Assembly: GCA_030390025.1 (NCBI GenBank)
Contig: CM059432.1
Coordinates: forward strand, 97,156,001 to 97,220,000
Direction: 5' to 3'
DNA from: Squalus acanthias
Taxonomy: Eukaryota
DNA: 64,000 nt
The notes beneath the pieces were generated by a model. The model was not told the DNA's origin. It saw nothing but the letters and a program-made list of their open reading frames with translations, and searched no databases. Positions 7,633 through 64,000 of the stretch are shown here, piece after piece. A program made the position numbers and the translations under genes. Within the stretch, counting starts at the first letter, position 1. The number at the start of each line of letters is the position of its first letter.

Positions 7633-8622
7633 ATAATGAGCAAGCACCTGAGCAGCCTGTCCCTGAGGGCACCGTTGAGAGTGATGCAGGAGAGGAGGAG
7701 GAGGAAGAACACACCGCATCACTGCATGTCTCACCCGCAGGCACCAGCTCAGATACTGGCACTACGCGTTCTTTAGAGGCAAGTATAGTAGTGGGATTTG
7801 CACAGGCTGATGCACTGGGAATGAGCGGGCTGCATCAAGGCCAGGGAGAAAGGGTAGCTCGGGGGTCAGCTCCCCGGAGGGCATGCAAACCGGGATGATA
7901 GGTGCAATGGCAAGGGTTCCCGAGAACCTGTCGGCAATGGTAAGGAGCGTGGAGGTGTACGCCTCCAACATTGCACAAAGCTCTGCACACAACATGGAGC
8001 CCACCATTTCCAGTCTGCAAAGGATGGTAGATGCTCAGAGAGACCGTGGCGACCCAAACCTGATGCCACATGTGATAGGCGATCTGGCAGCTTCCATTGC
8101 AGCACAGGCAGAAGCGATGCAACGTCTTAGTGCTGTAATGCAGTCTCAGCTTGATGCCACACAAGCTCTGACTGCTGCCATCGTGGCTGGGTCTACCACT
8201 GTCGACCAGGACTTTCACGGTGTCACAGCAGGCCAGCAATCTGTACTCCAGCGGATTGGTAGGATGCTGAGGTGCTGCCCCAGGGGAGTGGCTGTGGGTC
8301 AGTGGAGCAGGAAGCTGCTGTCCTCTCTCAGGATGACAGCATTCCTGCTCCCACCACTGGCTCTTTGCCCTTGTCGCTGCCTGTCATCCAGCCAGCCCAG
8401 ACTACTGCCGCCCATGCTGAGGTGGTGCAGTCTAAAGCTGGGCCTTCCAGGCCCAGAGCTGGTCGAGGGCATCCTGCAAGGCCATCTGAAGTCTCCCGCA
8501 CGGACACTCAGCAGCCTTCCACCAGCCATGCTGCAGCCACTGGGCCAACACTTCATAGGAGCACTAGAGTAGGCAAAGGCACAGTAACAAGAGGCACTAA
8601 GGGATTGCACAAGGGTGAATAG
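7633..8622 (+). pseudogene. Harbinger partner (Myb/SANT-type ORF2) gene, last exon remnant, frameshifted
   Basis: Follows the acceptor tttcag; homologous to 37504-38576 (ATQALTAAIVAG, GQQSVLQ, AVLSQDDSIPA, AAHAEVVQS, AGPSRPRAGRG). Confidence 0.85.
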
Positions 8623-8772
8623 TAAATATTGTTGTTGTAAGGATGTGTTCACTGATTATTAATAAATTTATTAATTCACTGGATGATTTTGTATTGTCCC
8701 TCATTTCAGCTGTGCCTGCGACAGGGATGGAATGATGGGGATATGATGAGCAATGGGGATCTGGGGTTGAAT

Positions 8773-9770
8773 TTACTGGAACCACAGTCTGATGAGGTGG
8801 TCACGGACCGCCCTTCCAGAAGGTCGATTGAGTGGCTGCCTTCTCCCTCGCTCCTGTTCCTCCTCCTCCTCATCTTCCTCGTCTTCCTCATCCTCCTCCT
8901 CATCCTCCTCCTCCTCCTCTCCCTCTTCCTCCTCCTGAGGTGGTCCCGCAATCCCTGCTGGCAAGGGCTGGGACCTCATGATGGCCAGATTGTGGAGCAT
9001 GCAGCAGACCACCATGAAATGGGACGTCCACTCAGCCGAGTACTGGAGGGCTCCTCCTGAGTGGTCAAGGCAGCAGAACCGTTGCTTGAGCACCCCGATG
9101 GTCTGCTCGATGATGTTCCTGGTGGCAGCATGGTTCTCAATATATGACTGCTGGGCAGGAGTGTTGGGTTGCGGAGGGGAGTCATGAGCCAGGTGGACAG
9201 CGGATAGCCCTTGTCTCCGCGTAGCCAGCCGCGAGCTTGATGTGGTGGCTGGAAGAGTGCTGGCACACTGGTCTGGCGCAGGATGAAGGCATCGTGCTGC
9301 TGCCAGGATAGCGGGCATTGACATTGAGGATTCACTGTCTGTGGTCGCACACCAACTGAACATTAAGTGAGTGGTAGCCTTTGCAGTTACTGAAGATCTC
9401 ACGATTGTTATGTGGTGCCCGCAAAGCCACGTGGGTGCAGTCAATGGCGCCCTGCATCATGGGGAATCCTGCTATCCTGGCAAAGCCACATGCACGCTCA
9501 TCCTGCTTCTCTCTGGTGATGGGGAAGGAAATGTAGTCCCTTCTCCTACTGTAGAGAGCCTCTGTGACCTCCCGGATGCAGCGATGAATGGCGAACTGCG
9601 AGATGTTAGCTACGTCTCCTGTCACAGACTGGTAGGATCCACTGGCAAAGAAATTGAGGGAGACGGTGACCTTGACTGCCACTGAGAGAACCGTCCTTGT
9701 CCTGATCTGAGGCTCGAGGTCTGGTTGCAGGAGGTGGCAGAGTTCTGTGACCACCTCCTTGCTGAAGTGC
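8773..9770 (-). pseudogene. Harbinger DDE transposase (HARBI1-like), 5'-truncated, frameshifted
   Basis: [54 protein letters not shown] and an acidic tail. Confidence 0.92.
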
Positions 9771-22036: not shown

Positions 22037-22292
22037 TCTGTTTCTCTCTCTCGCTTTCACTTTCTAAAGTTTATAGAACAAAAAGCAACGTCTACAATAG
22101 GTGGGGGTGCAATCAAAACACTTGTCATGTTTTTCTGTTTCTTTCACACACACATAGGCACACACAGGCACACACAGCCTCTCTGAGGGGTTTTTAAAGC
22201 TACTCAATATGAATCAGTAGACCTTGAAATTTGTTCCCTAGCTTTTCTTCATGATATTTTTTTCAGCAGAAACTGCTTTAATCTAAAGAAAG

Positions 22293-24700
22293 ATTCCTCA
22301 CTATAGCTGACTCACTGAGAGTGAAGATATTCCTCACTGTAGCTGACTCACTGAGAGTGAAGATATTCCTCACTATAGCTGACTCACTGAGAGTGAAGAT
22401 ATTCCTCACTATAGCTGACTCACTGAGAGTGAAGATATTCCTCACTATAGCTGACTCACTGAGAGTGAAGATATTCCTCACTATAGCTGACTCACTGAGA
22501 GTGAAGATATTCCTCACTACAGCTGACTCACTCAGAGTGAAGATATTCCTCACTATAGCTGACTCACTGAGAGTGAAGATATTCCTCACTATAGCTGACT
22601 CACTGAGAGTGAAGATATTCCTCACTATAGCTGACTCACTGAGAGTGAAGATATTCCTCACTATAGCTGACTCACTGAGAGTGAAGATATTCCTCACTAT
22701 AGCTGACTCACTGAGAGTGAAGATATTCCTCACTATAGCTGACTCACTCAGAGTGAAGATATTCCTCACTATAGCTGACTCACTGAGAGTGAAGATATTC
22801 CTCACTATAGCTGACTCACTCAGAGTGAAGATATTCCTCACTATAGCTGACTCACTCAGAGTGAAGATATTCCTCACTATAGCTGACTCACTCAGAGTGA
22901 AGATATTCCTCACTATAGCTGACTCACTGAGAGTGAAGATATTCCTCACTATAGCTGACTCACTCAGAGTGAAGATATTCCTCACTATAGCTGACTCACT
23001 GAGAGTGAAGATATTCCTCACTATAGCTGACTCACTGAGAGTGAAGATATTCCTCACTATAGCTGACTCACTGAGAGTGAAGATATTCCTCACTATAGCT
23101 GACTCACTGAGAGTGAAGATATTCCTCACTATAGCTGACTCACTGAGAGTGAAGATATTCCTCACTATAGCTGACTCACTGAGAGTGAAGATATTCCTCA
23201 CTATAGCTGACTCACTGAGAGTGAAGATATTCCTCACTATAGCTGACTCACTGAGAGTGAAGATATTCCTCACTATAGCTGACTCACTGAGAGTGAAGAT
23301 ATTCCTCACTATAGCTGACTCACTGAGAGTGAAGATATTCCTCACTATAGCTGACTCACTGAGAGTGAAGATATTCCTCACTACAGCTGACTCACTGAGA
23401 GTGAAGATATTCCTCACTATAGCTGACTCACTGAGAGTGAAGATATTCCTCACTATAGCTGACTCACTGAGAGTGAAGATATTCCTCACTATAGCTGACT
23501 CACTGAGAGTGAAGATATTCCTCACTATAGCTGACTCACTGAGAGTGAAGATATTCCTCACTATAGCTGACTCACTGAGAGTGAACATATTCCTCACTAT
23601 AGCTGACTCACTGAGAGTGAAGATATTCCTCACTATAGCTGACTCACTGAGAGTGAAGATATTCCTCACTATAGCTGACTCACTGAGAGTGAAGATATTC
23701 CTCACTATAGCTGACTCACTGAGAGTGAAGATATTCCTCACTACAGCTGACTCACTGAGAGTGAAGATATTCCTCACTACAGCTGACTCACTGAGAGTGA
23801 ACATATTCCTCACTACAGCTGACTCACTGAGAGTGAAGATATTCCTCACTATAGCTGACTCACTGAGAGTGAAGATATTCCTCACTATAGCTGACTGACT
23901 GAGAGTGAAGATATTCCTCACTATAGCTGACTCACTGAGAGTGAAGATATTCCTCACTACAGCTGACTCACTGAGAGTGAAGATATTCCTCACTACAGCT
24001 GACTCACTGAGAGTGAAGATATTCCTCACTACAGCTGACTCACTGAGAGTGAAGATATTCCTCACTACAGCTGACTCACTGAGAGTGAAGATATTCCTCA
24101 CTACAGCTGACTCACTGAGAGTGAAGATATTCCTCACTACAGCTGACTCACTGAGAGTGAAGATATTCCTCACTACAGCTGACTCACTGAGAGTGAAGAT
24201 ATTCCTCACTACAGCTGACTCACTGAGAGTGAAGATATTCCTCACTACAGCTGACTCACTGAGAGTGAAGATATTCCTCACTACAGCTGACTCACTGAGA
24301 GTGAAGATATTCCTCACTACAGCTGACTCACTGAGAGTGAAGATATTCCTCACTACAGCTGACTCACTGAGAGTGAAGATATTCCTCACTACAGCTGACT
24401 CACTGAGAGTGAAGATATTCCTCACTACAGCTGACTCACTGAGAGTGAAGATATTCCTCACTACAGCTGACTCACTGAGAGTGAAGATATTCCTCACTAT
24501 AGCTGACTCACTGAGAGTGAAGATATTCCTCACTATAGCTGACTCACTGAGAGTGAAGATATTCCTCACTATAGCTGACTCACTGAGAGTGAAGATATTC
24601 CTCACTATAGCTGACTCACTGAGAGTGAAGATATTCCTCACTATAGCTGACTCACTGAGAGTGAAGATATTCCTCACTATAGCTGACTCACTGAGAGTGA
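22293..24700. repeat. 36-bp satellite/minisatellite, about 67 near-identical copies
   Basis: Unit gagtgaagatattcctcacta(t/c)agctgactcact(g/c)a repeated head to tail with no spacers. Confidence 0.98.
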
Positions 24701-24760
24701 TGCATCCTGAAAAATTAGGTTCACTGCCCATTCTCAGACTACACAATCTGAATTCATATT

Positions 24761-27700
24761 AACATATGAATATAAGAAGTAAGAGCAGGAGTACGGCCTC
24801 TCGAGCCTGCTCCGCCATTCAATAAGATCATGGCTGATCATCGACCTCAACTCCACTTTCCCGCCTGATCTCCATATCCCTTGATTCCCCTAGAGTTCAA
24901 AAATCTATCGATCTCAGACTCAGCATTCACAGCCCACTGGGGCAGAGAATTCCAAAGATTCACAATCCTCTGAGTGAAGAAATTCTTCCTCATCTCAGTC
25001 TTAAATAGCCTAACCCTATCCTGAAACTATGACCCCTAGTTCTAGACACTCCAGCCAGGGGAAACAATCTCTCATCATCTACCCTGTCAATCCCCTTCAG
25101 AATCTTGTATGTTTCAATGAGATCACCTCTCATTCTTCTAAACTCCAGAGAGTATAGGCCCATTCTACACAATCTCTCATCATAGGACAGCCCTCTCATC
25201 CCAGGAATCAATCTAGTGAACCTTCGTTGCACCACCTCCAAGGCAAGTATATCCTTCCTTATATAAGGAGACCAAAACTGTGCACAGTACTCCAGGTGTG
25301 CTCTCACCAAGGCCCTGTACAATTGTAGCAAGACTTCCTTACTCTTATACTCCAACCCACTTGCAATAAAGGCCAACATGCCATTTGCCTTCCTTATTGC
25401 TTGCTGTACTTGCATGCTAGCTTTCTGTGTTTCTTGCATGAGGACATCCAAATCTCTCTTGAACAGCAACATTTGAAAGTTTCTCACCATTTAAAAAATA
25501 TTCTGTTTTTCTATTCTTCCTACCAAAGTGAATAACCTCACATTTCTCTACATTATACTCCATCTGCCACCTTACTGCCCACTCACTTAGTTTATCTATA
25601 TCCCTTTGCAGACTCTTTGTGTTCTCCTCACAGCTTACTGTCCCAACTAGCTTTGTATCATCAGCAAACTTGGATACATTACACTCGGTCCCTTCATCTA
25701 GGTTATTAATATAGATTGTAAATAGCTGAGACCCCAACACTGATCCTTGCGAAACCCCACTAGTTACAGCCTGCCAACCTGAAAAAGATCCGTTTATCCC
25801 TACTCTCTGTTTTCTGTCCATTAACCAATCCTCTATCCATGCTACTCCCAACCCCATGAGCCCTAATCTTGTGTAATAATCTTTTATGTGGCACCTTATC
25901 GAATGCCTTTTGGAAGTCCAAATATACTACATCCACTGGTTGCCCTTTATCTACCCTGTTAATTACATCCTCAAAAAACTCTAATAAATTCGTCAAACAC
26001 GATTTCCCTTTCATAAAACCATGTTGACTCTGCCTAATCATGTTATGATTTTCTAAGTGATGTGATACCACTTCCTTAACAATGGATTCCAGCATTTTCC
26101 CGACGACTGATGTCAGGCTAACTGGCCTGTAGTTCCGTTTTCTCTCTCCCTCCTTTCTTGAATAGCAGTGTTACATTTGCGACCTTCGAATCCGCTGGTA
26201 CCATTCCAGAATCTAGGGAATTTTGGAAGATCAAAACCAATGCATCCACTATCTCTTCAGCCACCTCTTTTAGAACCCTAGGATGTAGGCCGTCAGGTCC
26301 AGTGGATTTGTTGGCTTTTAGTCCCATTAGTTTCTCTAGTACTTTTTCTCTACTTATATTAATTACGTTAAGTTCCTCACCCTCATTAGACTCTTGGTTC
26401 CCCACCATTTTTCATATGCTTTTTGTGTCTTCTTCTGTGAAGACTGATACAAAATATTTGTTTAATGTTTTTGCCATTTCCTTATTCCCCATAATAATTA
26501 CTCCTGTCTCAGCTTCTAAGGGACCAACGTTTACTTTTGCTATTCTTTTCCTTTTTACATACTTGTAGAAACTCTTTCAATCTGCTTTTATATTTCTTGC
26601 TAGTTTTCTCTCGTATTCTATTTATTCCCTTTTTATCAATTTTTTGGTCAACCTTTGCTGGTTTCTGAAACTCTCCCAATCCTCAGGCTTACTATTATTC
26701 TTTGCAACATTATAAGCTTCTTCTTTCAATCTAATGCTATTCTTAACTTCTTTAGTTAGCCACGGTTGGATCTCTTTTCCCGTGGAGTCTTTGTTTCTCA
26801 ATGGAATATATTTTTGTTGAGAATTATGAAATATTTCTTTAAATGCTAGCCACTGCTCATCTACCGCCATACCTTTTAATCTATTTTTCCAATCTACCTT
26901 AACCAACTCGCCCCTCATACCTATGTAATTGGCTTTATTTAAGTTGAAGACTCTAGTTTCGGACTTAGGCAAGTCACTCTCAAAATTAATGTAAAATTCT
27001 ATCATATTATGATCACTCTGCCCCAGAGGATCCTTTACTATGAGATTGCTAATTAACCCTGTCTCTTTACACAATACAAGATCTAAAATAACCTGTTCCC
27101 TGGTTGGTTCCATGACATATTGTTCTAGGAAACTGTCCCAAATGCATTCCATGAACTCATCCTCCAAACTACCTTTGCCAATTTGATTTGTCCAGTCTAT
27201 ATGAAGATTAAAGTCCCCCAAGATTATTGCATTACCTTTGTTGCAAGCTCTTACTATTTCTTGATTAATATTCTGTCCAACGGTATAGCTACTGTTAGGG
27301 GACATATATACTACTCCTACCAGTGTTTTCTGCCCCTTGTTATTCCTTATCTCCACCCATACTGATTCTACTTCATGATCTTCCGAGCCAAGATCCTTTC
27401 TCGCTACTGTCCTTATGTCATCCTTTATTATCAGGGCTACTCCCCCTCCTTTTCAATTCTGCCTGTCTTTTCGAAGCCTCAAGTACCCTGGAACATTTAG
27501 TTCCCAACCTTGGCCACCTTACAACCATGTCTCTGTAATGGCTATTAGATCAAACCCATTTATCTCTATTTGTGCCACTAGTTCATCTATCTTGTTACGA
27601 ATGCTTCGTGCTTTCAGATAAAGAGCCTTTAATTTTTTTTTTTTAACATTGTTCCCTGCTTTGACCTTATTCTCTGCTGCACTGCTACCATTAAACTGTC

Positions 27701-35280: not shown

Positions 35281-36040
35281 ATAATATAGGACTGGAGTCA
35301 CGTGTAGGCCAGAGAAGGTATGATTGGCAGATTTTCTTTCCTGAAGGATATTAGCTAACCGGTTGGGTATTTTTTTCTGGTGCTATCCCACAAATTACTA
35401 GAATTATTTAATTCAGTTCACAACTTATCACTACAGTACCATACTGGTAGTTCCTAGATGGGAAAAAGTCCACAAGACTGCCTCTTTTGCCAGGGTCCAT
35501 CATGCAATTATGACACCTGTGGGGTTCGCATATATTGTGAGGAAGTGCAGTGTGATACAGGTCACATGTATATTGAACACATTTAATTTCTAGTATAACA
35601 GATATTGGGGAAAAAATTCAGTTGGTTGCGCCTCCCGTTAGCGCCTTAAGAGGGCGCTAATGGGGCGCAAAGCAACTAGCGCCCGGGCGCAGCGATGTTT
35701 ACGCCGCTCGCGAAATTAACTAGACATTTTGCGGCGGCGCTAAACAATACCGCCCCGATCTCCTGCGCATGCAGATCTTGACATCATACGAGGGTGCAAC
35801 GCCCTTGTGACGCCCCGGAGCGGAAATTGAGTGGCGCCCCCATCCTTTCCGCCTGCCGCAACCAACGACAGGAAGACTGGAACGCTCCCCAGTCGCTGTG
35901 GGGCTGGGGGGGGGGGTGGGTGCTATTTAAAGGGGGCCTCTTCCTGTCTTTCTCTGTGGTAGACATTTTTGCACCACTCGTTCTGAGAGAGAGAGAGAGA
36001 GATTCGGAGAGAGAGAAAGAGAGACTTCTGCATTGAGTCA

Positions 36041-37287
36041 ATGCTGTGTGAGGTAGTTTTGGCTACTGATCATAACTTTGCAGGTACTTTGGTTTTTGAC
36101 CGTCATAACTTTGATTGCCAAGAGACTTTGTGGGCTGCACTGATTGGGGGCGTCGTCCTGCGCCACCAGAATCGGAGGACACAGAGATGCAGAGAGAGAG
36201 TGGCAATCATGGCCAGACGGAGGAGGGCCAACAGGCCTCTATACAGGAGACCTTACCCTCCCAGGGTATTTCTCCAACAGTTCTCCTACATTCATATGTC
36301 TGAGGAGCAGTATTTGCGTAGGCTGCGCTTCAGCAAGGAGGTAGTCACTGAGCTCTACCACCTGCTGCAGCCAGATCTGCAGCCTCAACTGAGGTCCAGG
36401 ACGTCTCTGTCGGTGGCAGTGAAGATCACAGTGGCTCTGAACTTTTATGCCACTGGCTCATTTCAATCAGCTACTGGGGACATCGCCATATCTCCCAGTT
36501 CGCGGTGCATTGCTGCATCCGTCAGGTCACAAATGCCCTCTATAAAAGGAGACGAGAGTACATCTCTTTCCCCATGACCCCGAACAAGCAGCAAGAACGC
36601 GCAATGGGCTTTGCTAGGATAGCAGGCTTCCCCATGGTGCAGGGCGCCATTGACTGCACGCATGTGGCTTTGCGTGCTCCGCATGAGAATGCCAAGGATT
36701 TCCGCAACAGAAAGGGGTTCCATTCCTTAAATGTTCAGTTGGTCTGTGACCACAGACAGCTGATACTCGCTGTCAATGCCCACTATCCTGACAGCTGCCA
36801 CGATGCATTCATCCGGCGCCAGACTACTGTGGCAGAACTTTTCCAGGCACCGCATCAGCCAGTTGGTTGGCTTCTCGGGGACAAGGGATATCCACTGGGC
36901 ACCTGGCTGATGACACCGCTCCGTATGCCCAACACCCCTGCTGAGCTGCGGTACAACGAGAGCCATCTCGCTACCAGAAACATCATTGAGCACACAATCG
37001 GTGTGCTGAAGCAACGGTTCCGCTGTCTGGACCACTCAGGAGGAGCCCTGCAGTACTCGCCTGAGCGAGTCTCCCTCTTCGTAGTTGTGTGCCGCATGCT
37101 GCATAACCTGGCAATCCTCAAGACCCAGCCAATGCCACCAGGCCTTGGAGCACCACCAGAGGAGGAGGAGGAAGACGAGGAGGAAGAGGAGGAGGATGAT
37201 CATCAGCAGCACCAAGGCGGGAGGGCGGCCCACAATGGTGAAACTGCAAGGGCCGTCCGTCAACGGCTGATAGCAAGCCGCGTCTAG
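36041..37287 (+). pseudogene. Harbinger DDE transposase with one frameshift near 36488 (true start uncertain)
   Basis: ORFs 36041-36577 and 36505-37287; catalytic motifs GAIDCTH, GDKGY and IEHTIG are all present. Confidence 0.93.
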
Positions 37288-37503
37288 GGCCCTGCTGAGG
37301 AAATGGCTTCTGCCATTGAGAACAACATGAATGAAATCAACCCGCAACCCCTGAGCCGGCCAAGGCAACAATGATTCCAAAGACCAAACATGTACATTTT
37401 GAATACAAAAACTTATTTATTTTACAAACTCTGTGTGTGTCATTTCTTCATGACAAACTAATAGAAAGAAACAGAAAACAACAGTCATTAACATAACTGG
37501 TTC

Positions 37504-39526
37504 TCACAACCTGGAGATAATGTCCAAAACACTAAACAAAAGTTTGAACACGAACCTGGGCCTTTCATAAAAAAATGACCAACATTTTGTCACACCTCCT
37601 ACTTTTTGCCCTTCGAGGGTGATCTCCTTCCCTTGCGCACTTTCCCCCCTTCCCACCCTACTGCTCCTCCGTAATGGGACCTCAGTGGCTGCAGCAAGGC
37701 TGGTGGAAGGCTGCTGATCGTCAGACCCTGACACTGCAGATGCCCCTGAAGGACGGCCTCGACCAGCTCTTGGCCTGGAGGGCCCGGCTGCAGACTGCAC
37801 CAACTCTGCATGGGCGGCAGCAGTCTGTCCTACAGGCGGTGGCAAGTGCAGTGGAGAAGTGACAGTGGTGGCAGCAGGAATGCTGTCATCTTGAGAGAGC
37901 GCAGCAACTCCCTGCTCGACCGACACACTGGCACTCCCACGGGGCAGCACTTCAGCATCCGGAGCAATCTGCTGGAGCACAGATTGCTGGCCTGCTGCGG
38001 TGCGGTGAGAGCCCCGGGGAAATGTGACTGCACCAGCGAGGATGGCAGCAGTCAGTGCTCGCGTGGCCTCAATGTGAGTCTGCATGAGAGCTGTCAGAGA
38101 TGGGGTCATGGCAGCCAATGACTGAATTGCAGCACTAAACATTTGCGTGGCATCCGCCTGTGCTACAGCGAAGTGCTCCACACTCCTTGCCAGTGATTCA
38201 ATGCATTCGGGCACCCTTCCTACCGCACCCATGAGCTCAGTGTGCATGTCTACTGCCTGGGTGTTCATTTCAGCGATCAGTCGATCCTCCTCTGCGTCCA
38301 GTGCAGTAGGACTCGCTGGCATACACTCCCTCCGGGGAGAAGGCCCCCGAGCTTCCCTAACCCCATCACGTTGCTGCAGCCTGCTGTGTCCTGGAGCTTC
38401 ACCCTCATCAGACCCTTCCCCCCTGCTCCCCTCCAGGGAAGGCGTGTTCCCAGTGTGGGCATGGGCTTCCTTGGGAGAGGGTGGCACTGATGCTCCGCCT
38501 TCATCTTCATCCTCTCCTGCAGCTTCACTCCCACTGGCAGCATGAGGGCCCGTCTCCTCAGCTGGTGAATCACCATCTGAAAGTAGGGAGGTACAAGAGT
38601 GGCTTTACTATGAGGACAGGGGGCAGTAAGGGAGGAAGGAGTGGAGCGATTTAGTAAGTTGGATTGAAAGTGTCAAAGGCTGGTGTTGTGAGGGACAAGT
38701 GGAAGGAGAGAGGACAAAAAGGTGATGACCTTACCATTGCTGTCCAGAACGGGGTCGGCGTCTCCAGTGGTGACGGGACTGATCACCCGACTTGCCACAA
38801 TCCTCTGGACGTGCGCCTCAAGATCGCTGAGGGGTTGCAGCTGAGGCCGCCCTCCACCCGTCCGTTGCTGCTGTCTCCTATTATGAGATAGCTTGGCCTG
38901 CAAGAAAAAGGACGGCGTCTGAGTAAATATACAGCCATGGTCTTGCCTGATGTGCCTCCCATGGATTAATAGCCCTTACTGTATGCAGCCATGGTCTTGC
39001 CTGATGTGCCTCCCATAGGTGAATAGCCCTTACTGTATGCAGCCATGGTCTTGCCTGATGTGCCTCCCATAGGTGAATAGCCCTTACTGCATGCAGCCAT
39101 GGTCTTGCCTGATGTGCCTCCCATAGGTGAATAGCCCTTACTGTATGCAAAGTGTGGAATATGTGTGTGTGTTTCATGAGAGAGCCATAGGTGTTATATG
39201 AGTGTTGGACATTGGGGATTTAAGACCCTCTGGCCATAGAGTGAGGTTGAGATGGAGGGATGGAGAGGTATGGAAAAATAGCCACTCTCCCTGACGACCC
39301 GAGTGAGGTTGTTGAACTTTTTTCGACATTGTATATGGGTCCTGGGCACCATGCTCCTGGAGGAGACGCTCTGAGCCACCTCCCTCCACACTCTTCTGTA
39401 CTCGCGCGGCAAAGGCCTCCTGCCACTCTCAGGGAAGAGTATAGATTTTCTGCACTCCACCGCGCCAACCAGAGCATCCAAGGCCCGCTCGCTGAAGCGC
39501 TGAGCTCGTTCTCTCACCCTCTCCAT
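37504..39526 (-). pseudogene. Harbinger Myb/SANT-like DNA-binding partner; exons 39526-39290, 38897-38735, 38576-37504
   Basis: Exon 1 RFSERALDALV..WREVA..RTHIQCRKKFNNL; acceptors ttgcag and tttcag, donor gtaagg; phases join in frame; the intron 1 donor reads GAGAGT. Confidence 0.88.
38932..39148. repeat. 54-bp tandem repeat, 4 copies, in the Myb gene intron 1
   Basis: Unit cagccatggtcttgcctgatgtgcctcccataggtgaatagcccttactgtatg. Confidence 0.95.
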
Positions 39527-46904: not shown

Positions 46905-47133
46905 AGTGAAGGAATACGAATCAGCAAAGCATATATAGACAGAGAACAATGCCTGTGCAGCGTACAATGTCAGACGACTACAGTTAATCTTTCTGACTGC
47001 CTTTTATCACACCTCGGCAGAGAGACAATCAGGTCAGTCAGGAAGGCATTATATCAAAGACATAGCAAAATACAACTAAGACAATGAGGTGGGGTCAATG
47101 TGTCAAATGCTGCAGTCTGTATGGAAAACCATA

Positions 47134-49049
47134 CAGACATGCATCAATGCCAGATTCATCAGCCGCACTCACAAGACAGTCCAGAATGTCACCCGAGCAC
47201 AACGCAACGCCATCCATGCTCTCAAGACCAACTGCAACATCGTCATCAAACCAGCGGACAAAGGAGGAGCCATCGTCATACAGAACAGAATGACTATTGC
47301 AAAGAAGCATACCGACAACTGGACAACCAGGAACACTACAGACAGTTACCCGCAGATCCGACCAAAGAACACACCCGCCAACTCAATAGACTGATCAAGA
47401 CCTTCGATCCAGACCTTCAAAGCATCCTACGCGCTCTCATCCCACGTACTCCCCGTGTGGGAGACTTCTACTGCCTCCCAAAGATACACAAAGCCAACAC
47501 ACCCGGACATCCTATCGTATCAGGCAACGGAACCCTTTGTGAGCACCTCTCTGGATACGTCGAGGGCATCCTGAAACCCATCGTACAGGGAACCCCCAGC
47601 TTCTGTCGCGACACTACCGACTTCTTACAGAAACTCAGCACCCATGGACCAGTTGAACCAGGAACACTCCTCGCCACGATGGGCGTATCAGCACTCTACA
47701 ACAGTATCCCCCACAATGACGGCATCGCTGCGACAGCCTCAGTACTCAACACCAACAACCGCCAATCTCTAGATGCCATCCTACAACTCATCCGCTTCAT
47801 CCTTGACAACAATGTCTTCATCTTCGACAACCAGTTTTTTACCCAAACACACGGAATAGCCATGGGGACCAAATTCGCACCCCAATACGCCAACATCTTC
47901 ATGCACAAGTTCAAGCAAGACTTCTTTGCTGCACAGGACCTCCAACCAACGCTGTACACCAGATACATCGACGACATTTTCTTCCTTCGGATCCATGGTG
48001 AAAGATCACTGAAAAGACTACACGATAACATCAACAAGTTCCATCCCACCATCAAACTCACCATTGACTACTCCTCAGAATCAGTTTCATTCCTGGACAC
48101 ACGAATCTCCATCAAAGACGGACACCTCAGCACTTCACTCTACCGCAAGCCCACGGACAACCTCACGATGCTCCACTTCTCCAGCTTCCACCCTAACCAC
48201 GTTAAAGAAGCCATCCCCTATGGACAAGCCCTGCGAATACACAGGATCTGCTCAGACGAGGAGGAACGCGATGGACACCTATGGACGCTAAAAGACGCCT
48301 TCGTAAGAACGGGATTTGACGCTCGACTCGTCAATCGACAGTTCCGACGGGCCACAGCGAAAAATCGCATAGACCTCCTCAGAAGGTGAACACGGGACAC
48401 AACCAACAGGGTACCCTACGTCGTCCAGTACTTCCCCGGAGCAGAGAAACTACGCCATGTTCTTCGCAGCCTTCAACATGTCATCGATGACGACGAACAC
48501 CTCGCTAAGGCCATCCCCACGGCTCCACTACTCGCCTTCAAACAGCCGCCTAAACTCAAAAGTACCATTGTTCGCAGCAAATTACCCAGCTTTCAGGAGA
48601 ACAGCGACCACGACACCACACAACCCTGCCACGGCAACCTCTGCAAGACATGCCAGATCATCAACACAGATACCATCGTCACATGTGAGGACACTACCCA
48701 CCAGGTACATGGTACATACTCATGTGACTCGGCCAACGTTGTCTACCTCATACGTTGCAGGAAAGGATGCACCGGAGCATGGTACATTGGCAAGACCATG
48801 CAGACACTGCAACAACATATGAACGGACACCGCGCAACAATCGCCAGGCAGGATTGTTACCTCCCAGTCGGGGAATACTTCAGCAGTCAAGGACATTCAG
48901 CCTCGGATTCGCGGGTTAGCGTTCTACAAGGCGGCCTTCGAGACACACGACAACGCAAAATCATCGAGCAGAAACTGATAGCCAAGTTCCGCACCCATGA
49001 GGACGGCCTCAACCGGGATCTTGGTTTCATGTCACGCTACATGACGTAG
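47134..49049 (+). pseudogene. Penelope RT + GIY-YIG endonuclease (frameshift near 47290, stop at 48387)
   Basis: IKPADKGGAIV, FYCLPKIHK, GIAMGTKFAP, YTRYIDDIF, Cys-rich linker (CHGNLCKTC), NVVYLIRC..WYIGKT, GLNRD. Confidence 0.93.
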
Positions 49050-60760: not shown

Positions 60761-61060
60761 GGCCCAGAAATTGCTGGAATGGCGCATCACGTGGCGAGCG
60801 ACATGAATTAGACTTTTTACCTCACCCATCTGATTGCACTATATTTGCGCCGCATATTGTTGGAAACATGAATTGATAATGATGCAATGATGTCAATGTC
60901 GCATTTGGGACCTCATAAACCTAATGGTCTAATTCCTTAACCAATGAAAGAGAAGGAAAGAGAAAGAAACAGAGCGAATTACGAGAAGGAAATAGGGTGA
61001 ATTAGATGAATTTAGATACTGAAAGAGAAATAAAGAGAGGGAAAGGAAGAGAATGCATTA
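60761..61060. mobile_element. Left part of a MITE interrupted by the LTR element
   Basis: ggcccagaaattgc start; shares ccttaaccaat and a purine tract with the 15753 MITE; similarity stops at 61060. Confidence 0.6.
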
Positions 61061-62745
61061 TGTAGAATTCGCAATATATCGCGATTTTATTAATAAGGAG
61101 AAAAACACATAGTTTCGTTCAAACAGCTTTTATTTCAGCAGAATGCTGTCAGGTTTTCAAAGTGGACACAAGCAGCTGTAAAATGGCCGCCGCACCTCGT
61201 GGCAGAACATTCTAGACTTTTCAACAGGCAGACAAGATGGCGTTCCAGTAAACATTTGTGCAAGATCGATTAAGACTCAGCACATTGAAGATAATACATG
61301 AGACATCATGGGTTTACAGTATACACATAAATACTGAAATCGGTCTCCCAGGTACGAATAAAAGCTATTGTACCAAGTAATCAAGAACCCATCCAAAGAC
61401 ATTAATATGTAGAATCCCAACGACTCTACGATGAGAGAGCCGTTAGCGGGTAGTTACAGAAAACACTTGGAAGCCCCAAAACCCCTCCGGGGAGAACACC
61501 GACCGATTAAACAATGGGAGAAATATTAACAGGTACTCAGACATTTACGAGTAGCCCCAAAACCCATTAAAACGAAGATCACTCTATACAAGACATTTGA
61601 GCGCCAAACCCTAACAAAAGAAAAGACATTAAGGTTGGGCGGGAAACGGAAGATTTTGCACTATAATTGCAAGCTCCAAACCGTCCATCTTTCTCTTATT
61701 TGGTTGACTCTTATCCTCGTGGCTGCTCCTGTGCTCTTGACTCGCCGTCTTGTTCCTGTTTGCCTCGTGTCTCTTTTCAAAAGACTGTTGAACTTTACGA
61801 TCCGCTCGGATCTACCTCGTGTCGTGTCACGAAGACCTGTGTAGAACTGGGCTCTGAAGCCTTGAAGCGGGCGCACCATCCCGATAAGTCGGTAAACGGT
61901 GTTGGAACCGAAGGCCCGAGATGAGATGAGATGAGAAGAGAAGAAGACCATACTTATCGCCACGGTCAGTAAGCTCCGACCGTGCCTGTAGGTCGAATAG
62001 ACATTTTCCTTGCCAGGAAGACTTCTTTGAGTTCTACAGAACTGACACAGGAAGACTCTTCTTCGAGTTTTATCGAACCGGTGTGAGGGCACAGGAAGAC
62101 TCTTTTTTGAGTAGAGTCGGAACTCCGAGGACAACACAGATCTTCATGACAGCAGACGTTCCAGCCTGCTAGCCGGAGCAGAAAGGAGTAAACAAGTGGG
62201 GCCAGGAGACCCCCTGATCGACACGTGGGCGCTGCGGTGAAAAACATCCGATCAGAGTTTTCGGAATTCTCCGAGTTATCACGAGTGGTGAGCATGAGTC
62301 TCGAATCCTACGAATCTAGCTTAGGACAGATATTGATAGGGGAGGGTTTCAAGTATTAAGGATAATTGTAATGTGTGCCCCCATTTACGATGTGTCGTTC
62401 GTTCCTCGTTTCCCTGAAATTAGTTACATAACTGCATGTAAGATTGTACTGTCATTAATCTGTGCTTATGACATGTATTTCGTAATCTTAAGTATTATGC
62501 AATAAAGATTTTCCATTTCGTACCATTCAACCGAGTCTACCTGAGTTTCATCTCCATTACTGCTCTCGCATCTAAGTCCAGTGTCTAGAACCGTAAGGGC
62601 GAGTGGGTCGAACCACTCACAGGTGTGTCTAGTGCTCCCAGACTGGCTGGAGACCAGAACAGGCAACAAGGCCTAAACCCGCACTAGCACCCGGGCTGCA
62701 CAGAGCCACACGAATCTCACAGGCTGAGAGACAAAAACCCTTACA
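61061..62745 (+). mobile_element. Candidate 5' LTR (~1685 bp; left boundary uncertain)
   Basis: TGTA...TACA termini, AATAAA at 62501, PBS 5 nt downstream; alternative starts TGTAA at 62367 and TGTAAG at 62437. Confidence 0.65.
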
Positions 62746-62749
62746 GAAA

Positions 62750-64000
62750 ATGGCGACCGCGGCAGGACACTGGCAGCGAGAGGGCAGTGTGTTAGACTTT
62801 GGTGTGAATGTACGAAATGTTATGCAGGAAAAGATAGCAGATTATGTGTTCAGAAAGGTAAATCTAACTAAGAAATGGATAAGTGACCTGTTAGCGGATA
62901 AGAGTCCACTAGAGGCAGCCGAGAGGTGGACAGATAGTAAGGAACATAAAATGACAGTCGAGAAAGCAGTCTGGTTAATGTGTTACAAAAGGCAGGTCCA
63001 GATTTCAAACCAGGTCATTACAGCGCAAACAGCTCGGATCAGGCATTTAGAGGAGGAAATGGATGAGAAAGTCTCTGGAGGGGAGTTGCTCATCAGGAAT
63101 TTAAGTGCGCTGCACCGAGAACGCCAGGAAATCACCAGTCACCACAAAGCAAAAATAGATTACCTCGAGTGTCAGGTCACTGAGGCAAAGTTAAGTGAGG
63201 GCAGACTAAAGGAACGATGTGCCCGCCAAGCTGCCCAAATAAGAGCCCAGGAAGAGAGCTTAACGGGGGTTAGGGCGGCATATAAGATGGCCCTTGAGGA
63301 TAAATTTCAGGGGGCCGATCATAGCGCCTGCCAAAAGGAGATAGAGCACCTTAAAAGGGCCGTGAACAAAGCGCACGGCATGGTGTGCCTTATCAGTCCG
63401 TCAGCACACCAGCCGCTAGTAGATGAGGAGTTTCAGAAATTCCCACCAAGTAAAGCAAAGGAAGTATTAGCCACTATGCCCTCCGCGCCACCCAGCTATT
63501 CGGAAACCTGGGTAAGGGAGGAAGTAGTAGAAGAAATGAAAGAGCCCACTGAGGGAGAAGTGGAAAAGGGACCGTTGTGTCCAGTTACGGGTATAAAAAG
63601 GGGCCCAAACGGGAACGGTGGGGAACCAGGGGATCTCCTCAACCAGCTTGTGTTGCCTCACAGCTCACACCAGCTGAGAGTTATGATAAATCACGTACGG
63701 AAGCTAACCGAGTCAGACGACCCTTCCGTACATTTCAGAGAAGTTGAGCAAACCGCAGCCATTAACGGCTGCGATGATGGGGAAACAGCAAAAATGCTAT
63801 TATTTTCGTTAGGCAGTTCAATCCTTCAGTGTCTCTCGGACGAGAGCAAGAGGGGAACCAAGACATATGAGGCATTAAAAAATGAGGTCCTAGAAGTGTT
63901 GGGGATGGACGATGAAGGTCCGTTTGCTAGAGTGGGACAGACAGTGCAGATGGAGGGAGCACCCCCGAAGGTTTTTGCCGACAGGCTGTGGCCAGTATAT
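62750..64000 (+). CDS. gag: Gag-like polyprotein, 417 codons with no stop, running off the window
   Basis: Hand translation MATAAGHWQREGSVLDFG...; coiled-coil-like region, DHSACQKEIEHLK, PSAPPSY and a capsid-like region (DDPSVHFREVE..KMLLFSL..YEALKNEV..FADRLWPVY); sits directly at the PBS. Confidence 0.88.
   Translation, partial: MATAAGHWQREGSVLDFGVNVRNVMQEKIADYVFRKVNLTKKWISDLLADKSPLEAAERWTDSKEHKMTVEKAVWLMCYKRQVQISNQVITAQTARIRHLEEEMDEKVSGGELLIRNLSALHRERQEITSHHKAKIDYLECQVTEAKLSEGRLKERCARQAAQIRAQEESLTGVRAAYKMALEDKFQGADHSACQKEIEHLKRAVNKAHGMVCLISPSAHQPLVDEEFQKFPPSKAKEVLATMPSAPPSYSETWVREEVVEEMKEPTEGEVEKGPLCPVTGIKRGPNGNGGEPGDLLNQLVLPHSSHQLRVMINHVRKLTESDDPSVHFREVEQTAAINGCDDGETAKMLLFSLGSSILQCLSDESKRGTKTYEALKNEVLEVLGMDDEGPFARVGQTVQMEGAPPKVFADRLWPVY
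62751..62768 (+). promoter_or_regulatory. Primer-binding site complementary to tRNA-Arg(UCG) 3' end
   Basis: TGGCGACCGCGGCAGGAC is the reverse complement of GUCCUGCCGCGGUCG-CCA, a vertebrate tRNA-Arg(UCG) end as I recall it. Confidence 0.88.

Follow-up and report, generated by a model that had tools for sequence, protein, structure and literature searches.

A broken provirus of a young, probably SnRV-like retrovirus family in a shark genome, and its predicted F-fold envelope protein

The end of the window (the whole stretch of 64,000 nucleotides analyzed) holds the front of a 12.8-kb provirus spanning 61061-73830, in numbering continued past the window. We interpret it, with a probability of about 0.75, as a broken provirus of a young shark family resembling snakehead retrovirus (SnRV), which likely spread by re-infection of the germ line with an envelope protein (Env) predicted to have the F fold. 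The provirus is ordered LTR, primer binding site (PBS), gag-[UGA-CUAG]-pro-pol with tether and RNase H, env, LTR, and its features are as follows.

61057-61060, + strand: left target-site duplication (TSD) ATTA; the same four bases follow the 3' LTR at L002:4831-4834
61061-62745, + strand: 5' LTR, 1685 bp, TGTA...TACA, paired with the 3' LTR past the window
62354-62359, + strand: candidate TATA-like box TATTAA; further TATTAA in the LTR at 61088 and 61524
62501-62506, + strand: candidate poly(A) signal AATAAA; second AATAAA in the LTR at 61357
62750-64000, + strand: gag codons 1-417; ATG overlapping the start of the PBS; coiled-coil-like N-terminus
62751-62768, + strand: PBS for tRNA-Arg(TCG), 5 nt past the LTR end
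past the window, + strand: remaining gag codons, including a CCHC knuckle and one frame break
L001:5552-5558, past the window: TGA-CTAG gag-pol junction
L001:5555 to L002:82: pro-pol, with protease, RT, tether, RNase H, integrase and low-complexity tail; two frame breaks
L002:336-2687: env, 783 codons, with a likely Ig V-like domain, RQRR site, F-like ectodomain and transmembrane helix; one stop
72136-73830 (L002:3136-4830), past the window: 3' LTR, 1695 bp; short purine run just upstream

Most structural elements of the original prediction were recovered. The TGTA and TACA ends lie at 61061 and at the close of 62745, and both the expected 3' LTR and the TSD were found. All 1685 bp of the 5' LTR recur in the 3' LTR, so that the match is not confined to 62367-62745; the pair is 99.2% identical (98.6% counting gaps), with 14 substitutions in 1685 columns (K2P 0.0084) and one 10-nt indel. 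The 18-nt PBS is perfectly complementary to the 15 terminal bases of a host tRNA-Arg(TCG) gene plus CCA, and the start of the internal region is identical in 27/27 and 14/14 resolved family copies. The 417-codon frame is open from 62750 up to the window end, CpG retention is evident from observed/expected ratios of 0.88 in the LTR and 0.70 in the provirus interior against 0.40 in the remainder of the window, and the proposed TATTAA and AATAAA motifs are present as sequence, although neither is unique in the LTR. The prediction was likewise right that this is a young endogenous retrovirus with env, carried by a chondrichthyan. RAG2 of the host is 93% identical to that of Heptranchias, 82-85% to those of other sharks and rays and 60% to that of Latimeria, which identifies the host as a shark.

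The copy had also been described as apparently intact, which does not hold for the assembled sequence. The gag frame halts after 470 codons, compared with 601-603 codons in unbroken family copies, and the frame is broken near 64134 (gag), 64968 (protease/RT) and 66840 (RNase H). All three breaks are private to this copy, being found in none of 19 aligned copies, and env carries a stop at codon 315. These lesions may be real mutations or assembly errors.

To judge from its sequence, the RT carries Retroviridae motifs and resembles that of SnRV (class III, clade Huo); the RT and RNase H region of the two is 34% identical. SnRV likewise uses a tRNA-Arg primer. The RT motifs LPQGF, QYVDD and LDISNGFWSI match the SnRV row of Dataset S3 of PMC7947760, and by-eye RT identity to the query was ~42% for SnRV, 36% for MuLV, 34% for FFV and 31% for Loki-Str. 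Pol contains a tether and a second RNase H (RT_RNaseH_2, E 6e-22, followed by RNase_H, E 2e-11). In the RT tree, the query fell on the same side as P0018, a sequence with an RT nearly identical to the published SnRV row, with a support of 81/94; in the full-Pol tree, the SnRV side received 77/29 and does not form one clade if rooted on gypsy. Both trees were built without foamy, Loki or ERV-L references. The branch dividing gypsy rows from all retrovirus rows was supported at 100/100, which, with the dual RNase H and env, sets the element apart from env-less Ty3/Gypsy. An AU test joining the query to putatively epsilon-like fish ERV rows rejected this placement for full Pol (p 0.007), while RT alone gave p 0.33. 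Whether SnRV is the sister is not settled by the tree; the family likely belongs to an SnRV-like group (class III, clade Huo).

SnRV, an unclassified member of Orthoretrovirinae in clade Huo, shares with the shark family its RT motifs, a single gag-pol frame split by a stop and a provirus of 11-13 kb. It differs in the junction (UAG-GGC versus UGA-CUAG in the shark), in its Env tail (136 aa versus about 20-40 aa) and in having non-coding sequence between PBS and gag, where the shark gag ATG overlaps the PBS. A 205-codon ORF between env and the 3' LTR of SnRV is absent from the shark family, for which ORFs of at least 100 aa were listed, and the 1.7-kb LTRs of the shark family are unlike those of SnRV.

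This simpler genome plan also fits a second reading, in which sharks, frogs and coelacanth carry a separate deep lineage near the base of Retroviridae that only resembles SnRV. By path length, the query lies nearest to Pol proteins of frogs and coelacanth that belong to no named family (41-45% identity) rather than to SnRV (34%), homologues of Env come from sharks, one skate and frogs, and a basal position of the query was not rejected by AU tests (p 0.12 and 0.37). However, the RT tree groups the query with SnRV, and clade Huo is broadly defined and spans all vertebrate groups (PMC6001957), so that the distinction may be a question of rank only; we consider a separate deep lineage unlikely.

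Among the affinities originally proposed (lokiretrovirus-, foamy- or SnRV-like), the SnRV-like one fits best; the RT motif of lokiretroviruses is absent, and neither the primer nor the gag-pol layout is foamy. Foamy viruses use a tRNA-Lys primer, have a Gag without a Cys-His box and a pol separate from gag, and encode tas/bet. The shark family resembles them in its long LTRs, which had suggested the foamy affinity, in YVDD and in the F-fold Env (8RM0/8RM1), but that affinity is opposed by the tRNA-Arg primer, the CCHC knuckle in Gag and a pol in the gag frame, and there is no room for tas/bet. A lokiretrovirus was our first reading, based on the F-like Env and on Pol hits labeled 'NYNRIN-like', and was dropped on the published RT alignment (PMC7947760 Dataset S3), in which, by eye, 24/24 Loki rows have PFG instead of PQG and lack the Q ahead of the catalytic motif. 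That this is the first chondrichthyan lokiretrovirus is thus hardly credible, even though the F-like Env with an RXXR site, the tether and dual RNase H and the long LTRs recall that group and its detection in 0/6 chondrichthyan genomes would leave room for one, given that by-eye identity is lowest to Loki, that six motifs of database relatives are absent from the available part of the Loki supplement, and that the F fold fits other Env models as well.

The Env model matched hPIV3 F in Foldseek (E 3.8e-12), NDV F in VIA (Z 12.0 over 327 residues, rmsd 18.2) and foamy Env 8RM0/8RM1 (VIA Z 8.2-8.3), and Env is accordingly predicted to have the paramyxovirus F fold. The fold search also matched Env models of WEHV-1 and WDSV (walleye epsilonretrovirus), and because these and foamy Env match too, the fold is not diagnostic of a lokiretrovirus. 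At the sequence level, Env gave no match to PF00523, no Pfam hit under E 0.1 and none in a search against the PDB; a profile search returned only weak coiled-coil matches, and the A2 profile was swamped by the zinc fingers of a chimeric homologue. Ahead of the F-like core there is likely, though weakly supported, an Ig V-like domain (E 0.1 for Pfam Ig_3, with 0.0085 for the best homologue; Foldseek E 0.01-0.06 on a model of pLDDT 38). The available part of PMC7947760 mentions no Ig domain in Loki Env. Gamma-type Env also has an N-terminal IgV-like domain before the fusion machinery (10.1101/2024.03.17.585361), but there it sits on a SU/TM protein and in the shark on an F-fold core.

The family exceeds 3,000 copies: an exact env 20-mer occurs 3,152 times in the assembly and an exact RT 20-mer 667 times. 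At about 10 kb per copy, the family would amount to some 30 Mb, or close to 1% of the assembly, and it may already be catalogued in Repbase or Dfam. Scanning IMG/VR with the RT query gave no match. Copies for comparison were the first listed for the exact motifs, not a random draw. LTR divergence among them ranged from 0 to 0.018, and four pol-less copies have identical LTR pairs, which indicates that the family is young. A 4-bp TSD flanked 18 of the 22 copies with both ends resolved (30 fetched), one further 4-bp TSD having a shifted end, and all 11 resolved pol-less pairs (20 fetched). Few SnRV-like ERVs have been described from chondrichthyans, and those are old (PMC4422223); CmiERV lineage I of the elephant shark, likewise an SnRV-related ERV of a chondrichthyan, has one complete copy rather than thousands and, by its description, an LTR divergence of 0.033, against 0-0.018 here. 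As such relatives were already known (PMC4422223), the suggestion of an undescribed chondrichthyan lineage stands only in part.

Next, variants were counted in env of 19 pol-bearing copies, a twentieth being dropped as misaligned over the env end. Shared variants (22 N/94 S) gave an omega of 0.07, against 0.39 for singletons (89/68; p 2.6e-10), and the 15-copy main subfamily gave 0.05 against 0.39; the counts ignore transition and CpG bias, and shared variants are not independent. In 18 pol-less copies, shared-variant omega was 0.07 for env and 0.23 for gag. The dN/dS of 0.05-0.07 for shared env variants points to spread by re-infection. Intracellular retrotransposition, with env kept only through a recent burst or host use, could account for the thousands of copies, for tandem arrays in which some copies have a common LTR and for a large non-autonomous subfamily. 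Yet across copies 79-99% alike, amino-acid changes common to several copies are rarer in env than in gag in both subfamilies, no env stop is common to copies, and the 18 pol-less copies have no shared indels in env. No env-less subfamily appeared in 27 + 20 + 16 loci, although the 16 had been selected for a motif in env, and in one of the 27 no start of env could be detected. We therefore regard retrotransposition without re-infection as improbable.

About a third of the family, ~1,000 copies, makes up a younger subfamily that has lost pol, while its gag and env are still under selection. An estimate of four fifths, taken from the two 20-mer counts, was rejected: among 16 env loci with neither exact motif, 14 carry diverged pol, one is pol-less with the bridge and one is truncated, which lowered the figure to about one third. 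A search with the pol-less bridge, a coiled coil, found 40 near-identical places, and overly strict patterns for the pol-bearing junction gave 0 and 4 matches; the bridge is not significantly similar to Gag of the 61061-73830 copy (E 0.22). The read-through frame (coiled coil plus Pol tail) is open in 14/14 pol-less copies, and 9 of its 11 shared indels are multiples of three, versus 3 of 39 in non-coding parts. Four contig sets covered 30/30 bins of a natural pol-less copy, with no GT-AG joint among the matches listed; this mapping gives no starts or ends and says nothing on expression. Among the sequencing runs listed as containing the family, none was of RNA. The low env omega of pol-less copies could stem from recombination with helper copies. 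BHIKHARI elements of zebrafish are also young, non-autonomous and endowed with a coiled-coil Gag, but they are Loki-related and gag only, whereas the shark subfamily keeps gag, env and the read-through frame (10.1101/2024.03.25.586437).

In the mechanism we propose, RNA from the 5' LTR would be primed by tRNA-Arg(TCG). Ribosomes would stop at the UGA to yield Gag, and occasional read-through would yield Gag-Pro-Pol; the in-frame UGA-CUAG is conserved in 27/27 copies and corresponds to a known read-through signal, UGACUA in alphaviruses and UGACUAG in human genes. It is not among the retroviral read-through contexts in the available part of PMC13517186. Env would be made from a spliced RNA, be cleaved at RQRR and fuse membranes as a class I F-type protein, its N-terminal Ig-like domain probably being the receptor-binding part, and new copies would have arisen mostly via particles needing Env. 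Pol-less copies may encode Gag and Env themselves while depending on pol-bearing copies for protease, RT and integrase, with a putative read-through product of Gag, coiled coil and Pol tail. More tentatively, and with a much lower probability than the main reading, we hypothesize an ongoing two-part invasion by pol-bearing enzyme donors and a pol-less partner selected for its capsid, its Ig-tipped F-type Env and a Gag read-through protein in which the coiled coil replaces the enzymes, i.e., a division of labor rather than ordinary hitch-hiking.

Together, our results place this family next to foamy viruses and lokiretroviruses as a third case of a retroviral Env with a predicted F fold, and the matches to walleye epsilonretrovirus Env are relevant to the question whether retroviruses had an F-type Env ancestrally. 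Very high ERV copy numbers are usually tied to env loss, in contrast to this young, thousands-strong family with env still under selection. The pol-less subfamily makes the question of trans-complementation testable by sequence analysis alone. If the two-part reading is true, an F-fold Env with an Ig receptor domain would be in use by a class III lineage of sharks and frogs.

The sequence analyzed was the window together with the 25 kb directly downstream of it, from an assembly of 3.7 Gb. RAG2 from this assembly identifies the host as a shark, with 93% identity to Heptranchias, 82–85% to six further elasmobranchs, 75% to Callorhinchus and 60% to Latimeria. The element is a provirus, genuine and young but broken, that belongs to a large shark endogenous retrovirus (ERV) family, and its parts, numbered onward from the window, are as follows.

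61061–62745, 5′ LTR with TGTA…TACA ends, from self-comparison
five bases beyond the 5′ LTR, 18-nt PBS complementary to the last 15 bases of a genomic tRNA-Arg(TCG) gene plus CCA
64552–64558, gag–pol junction TGA-CTAG, the gag stop, in frame with protease
64555–69082, pro-pol, from Pfam domains, ending in about 290 low-complexity residues
69336–71687, env, 783 codons
72136–73830, 3′ LTR outside the window, from self-comparison, with a purine run just ahead

The LTR termini and the PBS of the original prediction were borne out, a full-length partner LTR and a target duplication (ATTA) were located, and the suspected env was found. The two LTRs differ by 14 substitutions in 1685 columns (K2P 0.0084) and one 10-nt indel; this divergence translates into 1.9 or 19 million years at rates of 2.2e-9 (from PMC7947760, consulted in part) or 2.2e-10 (from PMC4422223, likewise), both borrowed rather than host-specific. 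The gag ATG overlaps the PBS. Pfam recognized a CCHC knuckle, an aspartyl protease, RT, an RNase H-like tether and a second RNase H, followed by an integrase part with H2C2, rve and SH3-like domains, while the 448 nt between env and the purine run with the 3′ LTR hold no ORF of at least 100 aa. Contrary to what had been supposed, the copy is not intact: frame breaks lie near 64134, 64968 and 66840, shared by none of 19 aligned copies, and env has a stop at codon 315.

The primer tRNA of the family is a highly amplified one. Its 3′ end has 429 exact matches genome-wide, and in G000:C26:38.99–42.2 Mb (fetched loci L005 and L006) 1.6-kb units that match it form long tandem arrays, with tRNA-Ser(GCT) nearby. 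Elsewhere in the window, the description of every other element as decayed overstates the decay of the frame at 47088–49049 (+), presumably a Penelope-like RT with a GIY-YIG-like part, which only one stop interrupts (433 + 219 aa). Two pieces at 7811–9456 and 35987–38604, which we take to be Harbinger-like transposase, are each paired with a facing ORF on the other strand, and a tandem array of about 2.4 kb at 22278–24762 (36-bp unit) is open in several frames.

The TGA-CTAG junction was in frame with protease in all 27 resolved internal regions and was present in 17 of 20 loci of a pol-less form described below. According to the portion of PMC13517186 available, read-through is supported by UGACUAG in human genes and, among several viruses, by UGACUA, and the retroviral contexts given there are UAG-based or UGAAGA, UGACGA and UGAAGU. 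As UGACUAG is a known signal elsewhere, we infer that ribosomes may read through UGA-CUAG in the shark family, in contrast to the UAGGGC context listed for snakehead retrovirus (SnRV) in the same source.

The best named Pol matches were proteins from frogs and the coelacanth, annotated as 'NYNRIN-like' or 'integrase-like' (41–45% identity), besides one unnamed relative at 87%. Pol matches first suggested a lokiretrovirus, a reading overturned by a published RT alignment: all 24 lokiretrovirus rows shown in PMC7947760 have PFG, without Q ahead of the catalytic motif. The shark RT carries LPQGF, QYVDD and LDISNGFWSI, as the SnRV row does, and identity by eye over about 264 columns was about 42% to SnRV, 36% to MuLV, 34% to FFV and 31% to Loki-Str. 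The consulted part of that paper also reports lokiretroviruses in 0 of 6 chondrichthyan genomes.

Trees were computed for RT (55 rows, 280 columns) and full Pol (30 rows, 918 columns), drawing 54 and 29 of 120 listed matches, the remainder being mostly gypsy-like; the stored homologue P0018, which matches the published SnRV RT row almost exactly, was used as SnRV. In the RT tree, the query fell on a 17-row side with P0018 and frog, coelacanth and bird proteins (support 81/94), and in the full-Pol tree the SnRV side had support 77/29 and formed no single clade when gypsy-rooted, foamy, lokiretrovirus and ERV-L references being absent from both. AU tests on full Pol rejected grouping with epsilon-like rows (p 0.007) and kept a basal placement (p 0.12); RT alone kept both (p 0.33 and 0.37). 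Together, RT motifs and trees firmly point to Retroviridae and, of the lokiretrovirus-, foamy- or SnRV-like options proposed originally, probably to an SnRV-like element of clade Huo, class III (framework in PMC6001957, SnRV genome plan in PMC12193657, both seen in part). Five RT proteins of 1,230–1,290 aa (P0026, P0027, P0029, P0030, P0034; crane, falcon, parrot and two unnamed) lie, joined to one another by short branches, on the same side of the RT tree as SnRV; they might represent a class III pol gene domesticated in birds.

All homologues that sequence searches returned for Env lack a functional name; 51 of them had E up to 0.001. Organisms, known for members of a five-match list and ten looked-up homologues, were Rhinoraja (up to 75–77%), Pristiophorus, Mustelus, Chiloscyllium, Heterodontus and three frogs (about 20% identity). 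An Env model (34 alignment rows, the stop entered as X) reached pLDDT 61.6 and was good across much of aa 240–650. Foldseek matched it to hPIV3 F (E 3.8e-12; 237 matches under 0.001) and VIA to NDV F (Z 12.0), the top 11 rows all being F proteins or foamy Env; the ectodomain is thus predicted to resemble the paramyxo-/pneumovirus F fold. In BFVD it also matched Env models of WEHV-1 (E 2e-9), WDSV (3e-7) and feline foamy virus (7e-5), so this fold is no marker of lokiretroviruses; the walleye epsilonretrovirus entries are Q9WHI8 and A4GTG3, respectively. The 240 residues ahead of the F2-like part contain C…W…DxGxYxC, which we take to be an Ig motif. Pfam Ig_3 scored E 0.1 here and 0.0085 in one homologue, V-set 0.045 in another; UniRef labels the Chiloscyllium homologue 'Ig-like domain-containing', and a model of this part (pLDDT 38) matched mostly antibody, nanobody and TCR chains (E 0.01–0.06), an unrelated enzyme accounting for 2 of the 49 listed rows. 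An N-terminal Ig V-like receptor-binding domain is plausible, if weakly supported, by analogy with the gamma-type Env described in 10.1101/2024.03.17.585361 (seen in part).

Long, open Env homologues include P0254 (Chiloscyllium punctatum, 739 aa), P0253 (Mustelus asterias, 673 aa) and the P0289 cluster (Mantella aurantiaca, 16 members); the two lone shark proteins may belong to young proviruses or represent env genes captured by the host. The Pristiophorus gene models P0125 and P0249 join env pieces to Niban 1-like and zinc-finger genes, which may reflect exonised insertions or else artefacts of annotation.

Across the assembly, exact matches numbered 3,152 for an env 20-mer, 667 for an RT 20-mer, 955 for the pol-less junction, and 85 and 252 for the LTR/PBS junction and LTR end of this copy; diverged copies escape these counts, which also take in unplaced contigs that may duplicate haplotypes. 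Thirty loci were fetched from the 85; both ends were present in 22 (median K2P 0.0057, range 0.0006–0.018), 18 of these with a 4-bp TSD. With this copy counted, 27 interiors were resolved, of which 21 had pol and six did not; gag was open in 10 and env in 12 of the 21, and all three frames were long in at least two copies (pol measured in 15). Copies 11.0–11.1 kb apart occur at G000:C2:78010682 and 78021813, C5:162269802 and 162280833, and C889:378803–389944; at locus L038 a further internal region begins after the downstream LTR, an arrangement of tandem proviruses sharing one LTR.

In pol-less copies, gag and the 11 initial protease codons are retained and lead into a repeat-built stretch of about 240 nt, absent from this copy, whose translation looks coiled-coil-like by eye and which joins back in frame to the Pol tail. 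In 20 further pol-less loci, 14 of them resolved, gag was open in 10 and env in 10 (two unmeasured), and the read-through frame was open in all 14 (368–423 aa). Eleven LTR pairs gave a median K2P of 0.0006, four being identical, all with a 4-bp TSD. As 14 of 16 env loci with neither exact motif carry pol, the pol-less form makes up about a third of the family. Between 25 and 39% of the sampled words of one pol-less copy were present in five coded organisms, and four sequencing runs matched to it cover all 30 bins, one run possibly being the window's source; close relatives thus exist in other organisms.

Our literature search found the family described nowhere, and likewise no account of SnRV-like ERVs with an F-fold Env or of sharks with a pol-less subfamily that keeps gag plus env; Repbase, Dfam and bioRxiv supplements, outside its scope, might list the family. 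The proposed undescribed chondrichthyan lineage is borne out only in part: SnRV-related ERVs are known from the elephant shark, with an LTR divergence of 0.033 (PMC4422223, as far as consulted). Further related literature, also seen in part, comprises 10.1101/2024.03.25.586437, 10.1101/2023.10.26.564294, PMC12583693, PMC10435555, PMC11089739, PMC12287698 and PMC12440569.

A second pol-bearing subfamily (4 of 20 aligned copies) shows 83–92% similarity across gag and Pol tail and 95–98% in RT and much of env, reflecting either recombination or uneven constraint. In 18 pol-less copies, omega was 0.07 for env and 0.23 for gag, and 0.72, near neutral at the amino-acid level, for the read-through frame, where 9 of 11 shared indels keep the frame versus 3 of 39 in non-coding parts. 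Their Gag and Env may be kept by selection of their own or may be refreshed by recombination with helpers. For 19 pol-bearing copies, variants shared by at least two were set against singletons: omega was 0.10 versus 0.35 for the enzymes, 0.23 versus 0.52 for gag and, in the opposite direction, 0.82 versus 0.57 for the Pol tail. For env it was 0.07 versus 0.39, a silent excess that persists when the comparison is confined to the main subfamily of 15 copies or to just the N-terminal 241 codons. Where env is under selection while the elements replicate, this normally signals spread by re-infection.
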